A stretch of 64,000 bases of DNA, from the NCBI GenBank assembly GCA_951406725.2, contig OX597826.1, forward strand, positions 80,104,001 to 80,168,000. The letters are read 5' to 3'. The number at the start of each line of letters is the position of its first letter. Positions within the stretch are counted from its first letter, which is position 1. Made by a program: the position numbers and the translations under genes. Positions 5,830 to 34,799 of this stretch are shown one piece after another. The notes beneath the pieces are model-generated. The model saw only the letters and a list, made by a program, of their open reading frames with translations. It was not told the DNA's origin and did not search any database. This DNA comes from Octopus vulgaris. Taxonomy: Eukaryota.

Positions 5830-6804
5830 CAGTTCTATATTTAAGAGATTAGGAATTACGTACATTATTTACATTATTTGCGGGGGCACATGGCCTAATG
5901 GTTAGAGCAGCGGACTCGCGGGTTCGAATCTCAGACCGGGCGATGTGTGTGTTTATGAGCGAAACACCCAAACTCCACGCGGCTCTGGCAGAAGGTAATG
6001 GCCAACTTCTGCTGACTCTTTCGCCACAACTTTCTCTCACTCTTTCCTCCTGCATCTAGCAGCTCACCTGCGACGGACAGGCGTCCCGTCCAGGTGGGGA
6101 ACCTATACGCCAAGTAAACTGGGAAACCGGGAATCCGGCCTTATGAGTCAGGCATGGCTCGAGAAGGAACAAACAATTTACACTATTTACATTTGATGGA
6201 TATTTTGTCCTCATCTTGTTTGTTGTTAAGATACGAAAGATATGCGGCCCATATGACATCAGGACAGTATTCAAGAATAATACAACACTTCGCAAATATC
6301 TCCGAGTAAAACCACCAATAGAAGAGAATATGACCAAAGACTGCATGTACTCCATCCCATGCAGTAGTGGTAGGTTATACAAAGGCGAAGCATGCTGCCC
6401 CTTCAAAATAAGGGTAGATGAACATTGCACAGCTGTGACACGGGGAGATATTGATAAATCGGGTATAGCTGATCATGTATGGAAAAATGGAGACCCCTTC
6501 CCCCAGTGAGACCTTCTAAGCAGACCGAGTAGAGATATGAATAGCATATGGGAAACAGTATTAAGGGAGGATAGGAAAATATTAGATTTTTAAGCCCTAA
6601 AATTCACTCCAAAATTGTCCACGGGCATATGGCGTAGATTCCGAGTTCGATTCCAAGCAGTGACCTGAATAATAATAATAACAACATAGTAAAATACCTT
6701 AGGACTGAGAACCCAGGTACGAAATTTCCCCATGACACCTGATGAAGGCTCGAGGGTATATCAGCCCAAACGTTGTGTCAAATATCCGTCAAATGTAAAT
6801 AATG
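5830..6804 (+). mobile_element. Truncated Penelope-like element: inverted terminus, GIY-YIG endonuclease remnant, tRNA-like segment, hammerhead motif; a SINE is nested at ~5881-6175
   Basis: ORF 6216-6509 contains MYSIPCSSGRLYKGEACCPFKIRVDEH...SGIADHVW, a PLE-type GIY-YIG pattern. The terminus tacattatttacatttga.ggatattt is inverted relative to caaatatccgtcaaatgtaaataatg. Confidence 0.85.
6733..6780 (+). ncRNA. Minimal type I hammerhead motif, core mutated
   Basis: TGACAC-CTGATGA-A-GGCT..AGCC-CAAA-CGTT-GTGTCA: 6-bp stem I, with GAAA changed to CAAA. Confidence 0.7.
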
Positions 6805-6999
6805 ATATTTGTTGCAGCATTAAGTGGGAGAAAATGGGAGAGGTCATAGAGCCGTTTAAAAATAGCAACCAAATCTCCCGATAATTATATTGTCATAAAC
6901 GCAACACGAGTAAACGAGTCACGTTAGACCTTTTCCTTCTGTCTACAGCTTTGATTGTCGGATTAGAATTGGTTACAAGTTTTGACAATATCAGCAATA

Positions 7000-7720
7000 T
7001 CAACCCCAGCACACAACTGGTACTTATTTTACCAACCACTATAGGGTGTAAGGTAAAGTCGACCTTTACTAATATTGGTTTCAAATTTTGGCACAAGGCC
7101 AGTAATTTCTGGGGAGGGGTAAGTCGTTTCCATTGATCCAAGTGTTCAACTTTAACCCTTTTCCCTCCTGAAAAGATTAAAGGCAATGTCAACCTCGGCA
7201 GAATTTGAACTCGGGACATAAAGACGGACGAAATGCAGCTAAATATTTTATCCGGCGTTCTAACAATTCTGTCACCTCGCCGGCTTAACCAGTGGAATTA
7301 ATATTTATTTCTTTACTGCCTTGAAGGGGCTAAAGATAGATGGGACAAACAAGGACAGACAAAGGGATTAAATCGATTACATCGATCCCAGTGCGTAACT
7401 GGTACTTAATTTATCGACCCCGAAAGGATGAAAGGCAAAGTTGACCGTGGCGGAATTTGAACTCAGAACATAAAGACAGACGAAATACCTATTTCTTTAC
7501 TACCCACAAGGGGCTAAACACAGAGGGGACAAACAAGGACAGACAAACGGATTAAGTCGATTATATCGACCCCAGTGCGTAACTGGTACTTATTTAATCG
7601 ACCCCGAAAGAATGAAAGGCAAAGTCGACCTCGGGGAAATTTGAACTCAGAACGTAGCGGCAGACGAAATAATGCTAAGCATTTCGCCCGGCGTGCTAAC
7701 GATTCTGCCATCTCGCCGCC
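7000..7720 (-). mobile_element. Cluster of SINE family C: an old copy plus a head-to-tail dimer at 7306-7720
   Basis: Repeated atcgaccccgaaaggatgaaaggcaaagtcgacc core; head ctcgccgcct. Confidence 0.88.
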
Positions 7721-8271
7721 TTAACCGGTGGGATTAATATTATCATCGCAAAATATCAATCAAATTCAGCCGAGATTACCAGTTTAGTCCGTATCTTGTA
7801 TTTTCCATTAAATATATTAAGATGTCTTCTGTTTTTTATTTTTTTTATTTTCTATAATTCCAAGTTGACAAATAAGTGATGAGGTTATAGAAATGAATCG
7901 CCTACGAAAGGGAATACGAAATAAAGCGTCCTAAAGGTGGAAATGTGTTGACTAAAATACTGATGTGATTTATGCATACGACTGAGGGAGGACAGACGGG
8001 ATTATGACTTTGTACTGGTTATTAAGATATCTATAATTCGCATGTCTGTGTGTTGCGTTAAGACATCTGATTTCAGAACTATTATACATATAGATGTGTG
8101 TGTGTGTTTGTGATTATGTGTGTATGTGTGACGTGTGTGTGCGTGTGTGACGTGTGTGTGCGTGTGTGACGTGTGTGTGCGTGTGTGACGTGTGTGTGCG
8201 TGTGTGAGAGTGTCTGCACCATTTGGCCAATCCCAGAGAAATAAGCTGCCCATCTGTTTATATACACAACC

Positions 8272-8655
8272 GTGGAAGCGCAATGGCCCAGTGGTTAGGG
8301 CAGCGGACTCGCGGTCGTAGGATCGCGGTTTCGATTCCCAGACCGGGCGTTGTGAGTGTTTATTGAGCGAAAACACATAAAGCTCCACGGGGCTCCGGCA
8401 GGGATGGTGGTGATCCCTGCTGTACTCTTTCACCACAACTTTCTCTCACTCTTACTTCCTGTTTCTGTTGTACCTGTATTTCAAAGGGCCGGCCTTGTCA
8501 CTCTCTGTGTCACGCTGAATATCCCCGAGAACTACGTTAAGGGTACATGTGTCTGTGGAGTGCTCAGCCACGTACACGTTAATTTCACGAGCAGGCTGTT
8601 CCGTTGATCGGATCAACTGGAACCCTCGTCGTCGTAACCGACGGAGTGCTTCCAT
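8272..8655 (+). mobile_element. tRNA-derived SINE family B, full length
   Basis: A box tggcccagtgg and B box gtttcgattcc. Near-identical to the copies at 41409 and 49772. TSD atacaca(a/g)cc. Confidence 0.9.
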
Positions 8656-32207: not shown

Positions 32208-32381
32208 TAGCCACTACACAGATTTTTTTCTCCCCTTGTTTCTTTCTGTGTCCCTTTCTGTCGAAGAACTTTGGCTCGAAACGTAAAAGATTTTTTCAAT
32301 TCCTGAGCGTTATACTAATACATCTGTTTGTTTTCTACACCACCTGTCTTCGTCTTTCGTCTTTTTTTTGTGAATTCTCCC
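32208..32381 (+). mobile_element. Short repeat between (TA)n tracts with a degenerate hammerhead-like motif at 32254-32289
   Basis: CTTT-CTGTCGA-A-GAAC tttg GCTC-GAAA-CG-TA-AAAG, with one core change and one stem II mismatch. Confidence 0.5.
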
Positions 32382-33679
32382 TATATATATATATATATAT
32401 ATATATATATATATATATATATATGTGTGTGTGTGTGTGTGTGTGTGTGTGTGTGTGTATACATATATATATTGGAAAGTTTGGAGATGATGTACAGGTA
32501 TTTTATATTAGAAGAAATGAGGTACTCAGAAAATCAGATGGTTTATATTTACAGATATTTATTTGTATATTACATGTTTTTATACATCATATAACTTAGA
32601 TCATGTATTAGCGCTTTCTCTCATTCTAGTGGGGTTTTCAAATCAAACTAAGTTCCATGTAATATACAAATAAATATCTGTAAATATAAACCCTCCGATT
32701 TTCTTCTAATACACATATATATATATATATATATATATATATATATACACACACATACATACATACACACACACACACACACACACACACACACACATAT
32801 ATATATATATATATATATATATATATACATATATATACACGAACATAAACATATAAGTACACAATTTTATTGATCTCCCTTGCCTTTGATCTCTTGTTTC
32901 GATTAAATGTTCGTTCTGAGTTTTGGGGTCTTGGAGTATAACATTCAATAAATGAAGCCACTTGAGAATTCACCGATTCTTACACAAATTTTATGATATC
33001 CGGAGCAAATGAGATGAAATTATTTGTTTTCCAACGTATTAAACACTTGAAAATATTTAATATAACTTATATGGCAGCCTCTTCGTTCTTTGACCGATGA
33101 CTGGCACACGTGGCTTCGGTCTTGAACTAAATGAGTTAATGCTTTTACTTTTGAGCGTGTTGAATTAAAATCCATTTATGGTTAAGTTTTTCTTTCTCTT
33201 TTTTTTTTCGAATCAATAAAAAAAAAAGATGAAAGTCATATCTTGGAACGAATAAATAGTCCGAGCCGCATTTATAATTTGCGATTTGCACTGAAACAAG
33301 ATATTGATAATTATCTTATCCCATTGTGTCGGTGGCCTACAGAGTTAGAACCATTTACGATTTATATTTGGCTTAATGAACTGTGACCCACCACGAGCAA
33401 TTTTCTCTTTTTCTTTTTTTTTTCGACTGCGTTCAAAACCGATAACTAATTTCCATTAGATAAAAAATACCATTTTGTATTTAGATTCGTTCCTGTATTT
33501 TTTAAAGTTGAACCCTCACCTGTTCAACATCGACATTCCGTTTCTTCTCTCTTTTGTTCTTCTATATTCAATAGATTCTGTAGCATTCAGTGTCGATTCA
33601 GTTCATTGTCCGGGAGATTTCGTACGCATGTCATAAATGAATAATTAGGACAGAGAGATGAACAACGATGATAATAATA

Positions 33680-34180
33680 ATCCTTTCTACTGAAGGTACA
33701 AGGCCTGAAATTTGTGTCGGGGGTGGGACTAGTCGATTTGTATCGACCCCAGTGGTTCACTGGTACTTAATTTATCGACCCCGAAAGGATGAAAGGCAAA
33801 GTCGACCTCGGCAAAATTTGAACTCAGAACGTAGCGACGGGCGAATTGTAATACATACAAGCTAAGGTTGGGTGAGAATCGATATGGTTAGCTAGATTAT
33901 CGAGAAGCGATGGGTCATAAAATGGTATCCAATTAATTCAGATAAAATTAACATGATAATATATAATTTTAATTATATGCAAAACGACGAACTGGCAGAA
34001 TCATTAGAACGCGCTAGTTCCCCTGTCTTTGCGTTCTGAGTTCAAATTACGCTGAGGTCGTTTTACAGTCAACTTTCGGAGTCGATAAAATAAATACCAG
34101 TTAAGCGCTGGGGTCGATGTAATTAACTGTCCCCATCATCCAAAACTGCTGACCTTGTGCGACAAAACTGAAATCAATAT
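33680..34180. mobile_element. Two diverged SINE family C copies in opposite orientation
   Basis: Minus copy ~33680-33845 and plus copy ~33985-34180. Confidence 0.75.
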
Positions 34181-34416
34181 TATATTATATAATTATTGGA
34201 GACGGAATTGGTATTATTTACCAAAAGGAATCTTTATATTCTGTCGATGTCTTGTTAGAACACCGAATTCTTCGGTACTCTTCAAGTATAAATAACATAA
34301 AACCATATACAGGGGGAAAATGATTTTACCGACTGACTTTCATTTTCATTTTTCAATTTAACATATTGCCTTTTAATCAAAACCCTATCAACTACTATAT
34401 TAGATACTGAAGAGAA

Positions 34417-34799
34417 TACATTATTTACATTATTTACATTATTTACATTTGACGGATATTTGTCCTCATCTTGTTTATTGTTAACACATCGTTTCAGCTA
34501 AGATACCCTCCAGGTATCTTGGGGACATTTCGAACCTCGGTTCTCCTTCCTAAGGTATTTTTCGATGTTATTATTATTATTATCATTATTATTATTATCA
34601 TTATTATTATTATTATTATTATTATTCAGGTCGCTGCCTGGAATCGAACTCGGAATCTTGGAGTTAGTAGCCCGCACTCTTAACCACTACACTATATGTC
34701 CACAGGTATATGGCGTTGTGTTAACAATAAACAAGATGAGGACAAATATCCGTCAAATGTAAATAATGTACATAATTCCTCATCTCTTATAGAACTGTA
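34417..34799 (-). mobile_element. Third copy of the Penelope-like family, with a full tRNA-like segment and a deleted hammerhead
   Basis: Same inverted termini. tRNA-like stretch at 34629-34701 on minus (A box TAGTGTAGTGG, B box GAGTTCGATTCC). The hammerhead at 34483-34519 lacks ATGAAGGCTG. Confidence 0.85.

Follow-up and report, generated by a model that had tools for sequence, protein, structure and literature searches.

A Penelope-like element family of Octopus vulgaris with a tRNA-derived module between its coding sequence and its hammerhead motif

How a tRNA-like sequence with the A and B boxes of an RNA polymerase III (Pol III) promoter came to stand beside a hammerhead ribozyme motif, in repeats linked to a retrotransposon endonuclease, is the question raised by a stretch of the Octopus vulgaris genome (GenBank assembly GCA_951406725.2, contig OX597826.1, positions 80,104,001 to 80,168,000 of the forward strand). 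The whole of this 64,000-nt stretch is called the window here. The original prediction for it offered two answers, namely that a Penelope-like element (PLE) had captured a Pol III promoter, or that a hybrid of a short interspersed element (SINE) and a ribozyme, comparable to the Schistosoma repeat Sm-alpha, is mobilised by Penelope enzymes. The three repeat units concerned are 5'-truncated, back-to-back insertions of one PLE family of Penelope/Poseidon type. The family is real and abundant, and carries an unusual tRNA-derived module at the position of its promoter.

The three copies had been predicted to be related, and they are: blastn between them gives E values of 1e-21 to 1e-32, and alignment concurs. 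Each of the three units consists of two inverted arms set back to back and truncated at the 5' side, and target duplications flank the units as wholes (9 bp exact, 11/13 and 13/14 for copies 1, 2 and 3). One arm carries a tail of 32, 33 and 30 nt respectively, the opposite arm being tail-less. Inverted truncated copies with a one-sided tail of 30-40 bp are standard for PLEs (PMC8557442, PMC11167929). The parts of the units, with an open reading frame (ORF) in copy 1 and the tRNA-derived segment termed the head, are as follows.

5814..5822 (+): left target duplication of copy 1, identical over 9 bp to 6801-6809
5830..6229 (-): inverted arm of copy 1 with the 32-nt tail (ORF-start region), split by an unrelated SINE; from the alignment
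6228..6593 (+): 3' end of the PLE ORF, the remnant of a GIY-YIG-type endonuclease that has lost an internal segment and contains an in-frame stop; the ORF's terminal stop is at 6591-6593
6616..6627 (+): inverted repeat with 5-bp arms and a 2-nt loop, spanning head +1; the family majority letter at 6618 completes an arm
6623..6665 (+): head of copy 1, with a 30-nt deletion at 6636/6637; B box 6645-6654
6668..6679 (+): (AAT)4 microsatellite after the head
6734..6804 (+): tail-less end of copy 1 with the hammerhead (core 6739-6745; G12 changed to C at 6767), in-frame PLE ORF start
17923..17935 (+): left target duplication of copy 2, 11/13 with 18294-18306
17939..18150 (-): inverted arm of copy 2 with the 33-nt tail, hammerhead deleted, (AAC/AGC)n at 18057-18104, B box 18121-18130, ending in the anticodon arm
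18159..18294 (+): sense arm of copy 2, from the linker to the tail-less end; from blastn and alignment
18195..18238 (+): sole intact minimal type I hammerhead, from a stem-checked scan
34405..34418 (+): left target duplication of copy 3, 13/14 with 34798-34811
34419..34701 (-): tail-less arm of copy 3, with a hammerhead remnant lacking 10 nt of the core, (AAT)n at 34570-34626 and a full-length head, ending at head +1
34640..34649 and 34684..34694 (-): B box and decayed A box of the copy 3 head
34702..34703: fold-back axis of copy 3, a 2-nt loop at head +1; read by eye, 8 of 13 positions pair in Watson-Crick fashion and another 3 as G-T, the scripted threshold of at least 9 pairs not being reached
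34704..34797 (+): tail-bearing arm of copy 3, with the first 12 nt of the head, a deletion through the hammerhead, the ORF-start region and the 30-nt tail

Alignment of the three copies gives the common order head, (AAT/AAC)n, linker, hammerhead and end, and the full reconstructed order runs from the ORF stop through 30 nt to the head, (AAT)n, linker, hammerhead and ORF start, followed by two alternative ends about 30-33 nt apart. The head, which in copy 1 starts at 6623, 30 nt past the ORF stop, lies at the same position in all three units. Of the module that had been predicted as shared, the head, the (AAT/AAC)n stretch, the linker and the terminus are common to the copies, but the hammerhead core is intact in copy 2 only: in copy 1 a C replaces G12 (6767), and in copy 3 the left arm lacks 10 nt and the right arm lacks the whole motif. 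Likewise, tRNA-like sequence is found in all three copies, but the expected pair of boxes is incomplete, as copy 1 has lost 30 nt of the head including the end of the A box, copy 2 has no A box and that of copy 3 has decayed. None of the three copies keeps an A box, a B box and a hammerhead core intact on one strand, and in copy 2 the head (18104-18150) is carried by the minus strand, the intact core by the plus strand. In copy 1, 664 RNA reads run on from 6229 into antisense hammerhead sequence.

The GIY-YIG-type ORF remnant that was said to precede the module of copy 1 is present at 6228-6593. Pfam gave no GIY-YIG match for it, and its assignment comes from its relatives. The remnant is 72% identical to a protein of Octopus sinensis and 65-67% identical to relatives that bear a reverse transcriptase (RT), the proteins P0001-P0003 spanning 65-72%; the RT domain (PF00078) is found in P0002 and P0003, and only the endonuclease end is present in the window. 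An Anolis protein with a YIG motif is matched at 27% identity (E 2e-9). The clusters of the relatives include ORFs of 768 and 806 residues, and a search with residues 1-400 of P0017 found 631 proteins among 8000 candidates, an 836-residue Anolis protein being among the 120 matches listed; we infer that this is the Poseidon element PAc. Read by eye, P0017, P0006 and P0025 show the CCHH endonuclease motif and no zinc-finger linker between RT and endonuclease, and in the window copy the second Cys of the motif is changed to Ser. Other copies of the family carry the ORF further upstream of 6228, as seen in loose ends of public contigs. A search of the PDB returned weak RT matches only, and P0003 had no relative in metagenomes; one 27-residue bacterial match was disregarded. 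On the features tested (the endonuclease by way of its relatives, CCHH, the hammerhead and the tailed inverted insertions) the family belongs among the PLEs, in the Penelope/Poseidon clade.

The other end of the ORF was located in the hammerhead itself. The hammerhead and tail translate in frame to the N-terminus of P0025, a full-length relative of 847 residues (E 2e-5), and the match was equalled in 0, 0, 1 and 0 of 2000 shuffles for four arms. P0145, a predicted peptide of O. bimaculoides, holds the whole hammerhead-ORF frame contiguously and matches P0025 at 18 of 44 positions. A full HMMER scan with the hammerhead-frame peptide gave four proteins, two of them relevant and two of them repetitive chance matches, and a word-index search with the copy 2 peptide gave no match. 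Measured from stem II, the distal end lies at about 109 nt and, in copy 2, the proximal end at 88 nt. The PAc ORF begins at stem II of the hammerhead; in this element reverse transcription is initiated 111-118 nt inside the ORF, two start sites enclose the tail, each of the two target strands is nicked and extended, and an RNA extending to +172 is required (PMC11167929). As read from its translation, then, the octopus hammerhead with its tail is the in-frame start of the PLE ORF. As a separate observation, residues 1-40 of P0024 read as a translated antisense hammerhead arm fused to the ORF, as would be given by an inverted pseudo-long terminal repeat (pLTR).

The stem-checked hammerhead scan of both strands of the window gave a single match, at 18199, and no match in any of 20 shuffled sequences. 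This motif (18195-18238) comprises stem I (18195-98/18235-38), the core (18199-205), an unpaired A, stem II (18207-12/18221-26) and GAAA (18227-30), with a palindromic helix III of 1 bp and a predicted cut after 18234 (GUU). The unpaired base after position 9, the long helix II and the palindromic helix III fit the minimal type I motif described for PLEs, which cleaves poorly, and as a dimer (PMC4209133). Its folding energy is unremarkable (z -1.2, -1.6 and -0.7). Rfam scans of the window called no hammerhead or tRNA here, only microsatellite-driven or chance matches (in one scan, among the best 150 of 334 rows), and the hammerhead pattern had no exact match in metagenome, viral or prokaryote contigs. 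There was no pile-up of read ends at the predicted cut site in one cDNA RNA-Seq library; PAc likewise shows none at its cut (PMC11167929). The octopus hammerhead is an ordinary PLE motif, predicted to need dimer formation or the help of a protein. Two related repeats elsewhere in the window, at 46308(-) and 52064(-), contain the CTGATGA word with no stem II-GAAA partner.

The head is tRNA-derived. Its A and B boxes are spaced 34 nt apart, a distance that five intact SINE heads of the window also show. Its global identity to 11 distinct tRNAs is 39-47/73 in gap-poor, colinear alignments, a likeness partly forced by the search motif, and 16 of 29 viral-contig loci sharing the 3' motif of the head are tRNAs called by ARAGORN (Arg 5, Met 5, Gln 4, Asn 1, Ile 1). 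The cloverleaf itself is broken and degenerate: copy 3 gave only a malformed match at the lowest ARAGORN threshold, and a blastn search of phages with the head gave weak tRNA matches only. As to isotype, a pattern biased toward tRNA-Arg found one tRNA-Arg(ACG), but a less biased search was mixed, with the best upstream identity to tRNA-Met. Derivation from the two other SINE families of the window was not supported, in that the A and B boxes are alike but the anticodon arms and 3' bodies differ. We infer that a tRNA retrocopy, or a simple SINE ending in (AAT)n, inserted into a master copy's pLTR and persisted there.

The family beyond the window was assessed in 4 of 24 listed public sequencing runs (three of DNA and one of RNA), compared with positions 6170-6860 at 80% likeness. 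The three DNA runs, under three organism labels, held 15829, 10644 and 12833 matching contigs, and the RNA run (ordinary cDNA RNA-Seq with 150-nt reads) held 6947 matching reads among 12.9 million; the details given here draw on the best entries of each kind (differences 40/136, joints 15/149, filler rows 12/93, loose ends 24/1556). In the DNA runs, 99, 77 and 80 contigs continue from the ORF side into the 30-nt segment that copy 1 lacks behind 6637, and the same A-box segment is supplied from the opposite side by 340, 277 and 275 contigs and by 914 RNA reads. In the family majority the A box and the hammerhead core are both intact, and the A and B boxes match the consensus. Loss of the core had been named in advance as a result that would undo the proposal; instead, G stands at 6767 in 79, 82 and 84% of DNA depth and in 67% of RNA reads. 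In the RNA run, A>G and T>C changes occur at more places (26 and 23 vs 7 and 10), which was considered as a sign of adenosine-to-inosine editing; this was rejected, as C>T and G>A increase likewise (21 and 22 vs 7 and 10).

Reads and contigs thus run from the 3' end of the ORF into the head, which has no target duplication of its own, the duplications surrounding the whole fold-backs. The pattern expected of a tRNA-derived SINE (a start at the head, an end in a simple-repeat tail and a duplication around that unit) is seen in none of the three units, the microsatellite being internal. The tRNA-like segment is hence not an independent SINE insertion, the other result that had been held to count against the proposal. 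The elements are very probably PLEs of which the head is an integral part. On this sequence evidence (ORF-to-head continuity, no separate duplication, a core conserved in the family), a PLE carrying a Pol III-type tRNA head is the better supported of the two answers first offered. The hybrid of Sm-alpha type has become the weaker, since the hammerhead and terminus are the PLE ORF start, the fold-backs are standard for PLEs and no tandem array is present.

What the head may do is suggested by the distribution of depth along the element. Depth at 6656 exceeds that at 6590 by factors of 2.8, 4.4 and 3.9 in the DNA runs and 2.6 in the RNA reads, and exceeds that of ORF positions 6277-6567 by 4.7-15.7 (DNA) and 2.3-5.2 (RNA), the DNA values being summed contig depths and not copy numbers. 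RNA depth is flat at about 600-680 across 6365-6590, before the step. As PLE reverse transcription runs from the ORF start to the 5' end of the RNA, a step in copy number should mark the start of transcription, and this one falls where the A and B boxes would place a start; copy 3 also folds back at head +1, on the short inverted repeat, as read by eye. The reading that we favour, with somewhat more confidence than doubt, is that a Pol III-promoter head in the pLTR sets the template RNA's 5' end.

The proposed mechanism is modelled on the Poseidon element of Anolis. Pol III would start at the head within the upstream pLTR of a tandem master and read through the hammerhead into the ORF start, with no T4 terminator between. 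The PLE protein, made from a separate RNA polymerase II (Pol II) or read-through mRNA, would bind the ORF-start RNA and nick both target strands. Reverse transcription would then start at two internal sites, and the two cDNAs would run toward the 5' end of the RNA and be joined in back-to-back orientation, which would produce a fold-back whose tail is one-sided. Those cDNAs that reach head +1 would stop or snap back there, as in copy 3, and longer copies such as copy 1 would derive from read-through transcripts in which the preceding ORF is included. The wider proposal, that the PLE uses a captured tRNA-derived Pol III promoter to make short non-coding templates inserted in trans by its own RT and endonuclease, is one that we hold tentatively, at a little under even chances; such an element would be a SINE built into a PLE, would explain much of the short-repeat content of octopods and would be a candidate intermediate toward repeats like Sm-alpha.

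Several observations weigh against this account. Only one of the three units turns at +1, copy 2 turning in mid-head and copy 1 in the ORF, and the inverted-arm joints in the public runs are scattered (6592, 6636, 6658, 6742, 6747, 6766 and 6775-6783, among those listed). The RNA run shows no pile-up of starts or ends, and its two strands are of about equal depth. The copy 1 reference has its 30-nt deletion in the head, which prevents assigning the depth step to an exact base and makes joints at +1 difficult to recognise. The sense strand is free of T4 in 5/5 arms, which is weak support because the arms are A-rich and shorter than or near 260 nt, a length at which 114 of 492 background windows have no T4 either. 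ARAGORN called no tRNA in the window or in the patchwork head. As to the coding part, the peptide of a fifth arm (copy 2, left) was equalled against P0025 by 228 of 2000 shuffles, which is not significant, and a profile of the N-termini of 66 relatives missed the tail, because most relatives lack that N-terminal extension. The autonomous parent with RT and GIY-YIG, which was to be sought according to the original prediction, is represented by the RT-bearing proteins at 65-67% identity, but neither relevant loci nor intact parent DNA were found in metagenome, viral or prokaryote collections.

Some of these points would be expected if the head were an inert passenger, an old SINE or tRNA retrocopy carried in the pLTR of a successful master whose template RNA is made by Pol II, from an internal PLE promoter or by host read-through. 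The excess of short copies would then reflect a Pol II start near the head, stalling of RT at the tRNA-like structure or snap-back at the inverted repeat. We consider this unlikely, though it has the lack of an RNA start pile-up, the equal strands and the degenerate cloverleaf in its favour; moreover, Pol II starts inside the pLTR are described in Penelope and Chlamys (PMC8557442), the head with (AAT)n resembles a simple SINE, and the inverted repeat at 6616-6627 explains copy 3 with no need of an RNA end. Against it, the family-majority A and B boxes fit the consensus at canonical spacing while the tRNA stems have decayed, all four runs show the depth step at the head, and no duplication flanks the head.

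It is improbable that the short copies are a free-standing SINE-ribozyme, similar to Sm-alpha or to retrozymes, which split from the PLE and spreads from its own short copies, perhaps through self-cleaved circles, while borrowing PLE enzymes. None of the three units is tandem or a single-strand, head-to-tail monomer, all being inverted insertions of PLE type; copy 1 ties the same module to the ORF, and the hammerhead is of the minimal PLE type. The ends of short copies lie at the RT start sites, and since PAc needs RNA reaching to +172 (PMC11167929), they would by analogy not be templates. In favour of this reading are the depth of the head-to-tail region in DNA contigs, 5-16 times that of the ORF, a run X2 contig that joins 6804 to 6619 and hints at tandem units, the proposal that animal retrozymes are PLE derivatives (10.64898/2026.07.22.740005) and the coupling of Pol III and hammerhead in Sm-alpha (PMC6765202). 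Finally, that there is no real boundary at the head, the step arising from a decayed and deleted reference with two arms per insertion and the turn of copy 3 from chance, we regard as highly improbable. Contig depth is indeed no copy number, there are deletions in copy 1 at 6508 and 6636, its divergent stretches at 6688-6719 and 6770-6817 coincide with further dips in depth, and with six arm ends the chance of one falling near +1 is, as a rough estimate, 10-15%. But the 150-nt raw RNA reads show the same step from a flat plateau, positions 6567-6590 sit 46-69 nt from the deletion, and two arms per insertion give a factor of 2 at most and no shape of a plateau with a step.

The window, which is microsatellite-rich (31-44% GC), holds further repeats:

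5880..6178 (+): unrelated tRNA-headed SINE inserted in copy 1, with a 10-bp target duplication (1 mismatch)

This SINE belongs to a second tRNA-headed family, with other copies at 8283, 10273, 41785(-) and 50138(-), and differs from its sister copies in its 3' half, which matches 14294-14391. Another family of tRNA-headed SINEs, whose A and B boxes are intact and spaced by 34 nt, is found at 11698, 21760, 45267, 55565 and 63882(-), its 3' body being common to the family of 5880-6178. Two open stretches at 42869-44001 (+) resemble what we take to be a Tc1/mariner-type transposase remnant. An inverted repeat of 197 nt (28642-28838 and 29093-29289, 88% complementary, 254 nt apart) is similar to miniature inverted-repeat transposable elements, and 7167-7741 and 9561-9800 are partly tandem repeat copies with an inverted copy 1.8 kb away.

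Octopus tRNA-derived SINEs with the names OK, OR1 and OR2 were reportedly described by Ohshima and Okada in 1994, and their likeness to the present family lies in the tRNA-derived heads. The repeat may already be named as a SINE there, in Repbase or in Dfam. Surveys of octopus repeats list SINEs and PLEs (6.83% of O. vulgaris, in 190 families), and the parts available give no link between such heads and PLEs (PMC13282606, PMC8967140). No description of a tRNA-headed pLTR was found in the literature searched, which was mostly titles, with Repbase and Dfam outside the comparison. The initiation of PLE RNA and the role of the hammerhead are open questions; with its candidate Pol III promoter at the promoter position of the pLTR, this high-copy family provides a fixed RNA 5' end that can be tested. 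If the favoured reading is true, the capture of small-RNA promoters extends from non-LTR elements (SINEs) and long terminal repeat (LTR) elements (TRIMp3) to a third class of retrotransposons, and part of the large SINE fraction of octopus (PMC13282606, PMC8967140) may be PLE-derived.

Compared with known systems, the family is closest in structure to Penelope/Poseidon PLEs such as PAc of Anolis carolinensis, with RT followed by a C-terminal GIY-YIG (in the relatives) and an ORF start overlapped by a minimal type I hammerhead (PMC11167929, PMC8557442, PMC4209133). The inverted, 5'-truncated insertions are likewise shared, with two ends 30-40 nt apart and a distal end at about 109 nt past stem II vs 111-118 nt in PAc. 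Unlike the PLEs described in these sources, whose pLTR promoters are of Pol II type, the octopus family has a tRNA A/B-box head and (AAT)n between the ORF stop and the hammerhead.

Among repeats with both a Pol III-type promoter and a hammerhead, Schistosoma Sm-alpha and Sj-alpha carry the promoter upstream of a hammerhead on the same strand. However, Sm-alpha is tandem and non-coding with a canonical, active hammerhead, whereas the octopus family is dispersed, inverted and linked to a GIY-YIG ORF, with a minimal PLE hammerhead (PMC6765202). SINEs are understood here as defined in PMC3531059. Animal non-LTR retrozymes are also short, non-coding units with a type I hammerhead related to PLE pLTRs (PMC7229834, PMC7761336, 10.64898/2026.07.22.740005), but they are tandem repeats giving circular RNA (PMC7229834, 10.64898/2026.07.22.740005). 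No tandem head-to-tail hammerhead units were found in the window, with one tandem-like joint in one public run, and the main text of the retrozyme preprint, as available, has no mention of tRNA or Pol III (10.64898/2026.07.22.740005).

For the head, the closest parallel is offered by the TRIMp3 group of miniature terminal-repeat retrotransposons (TRIMs) (Cassandra, Helenus and Ajax; Kojima 2024, PMC10886601), in which a Pol III-type promoter derived from a small RNA, with a non-functional cloverleaf, stands in the terminal repeat and is proposed to have arisen by SINE insertion. TRIMp3 elements differ in being non-autonomous LTR elements with a primer-binding site (PBS), a polypurine tract (PPT) and head-less partners, whereas the octopus head is joined to the coding PLE itself. 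The two direct LTRs with PBS and PPT and the 4-5-bp duplication of TRIMp3 are replaced by inverted arms, duplications of 9-14 bp and a GIY-YIG ORF, PBS and PPT not having been searched for separately. In our reading, which rests on analogy, the octopus family would be the PLE counterpart of the TRIMs with Pol III promoters, such as Cassandra and Helenus, and not a retrozyme of Sm-alpha type.

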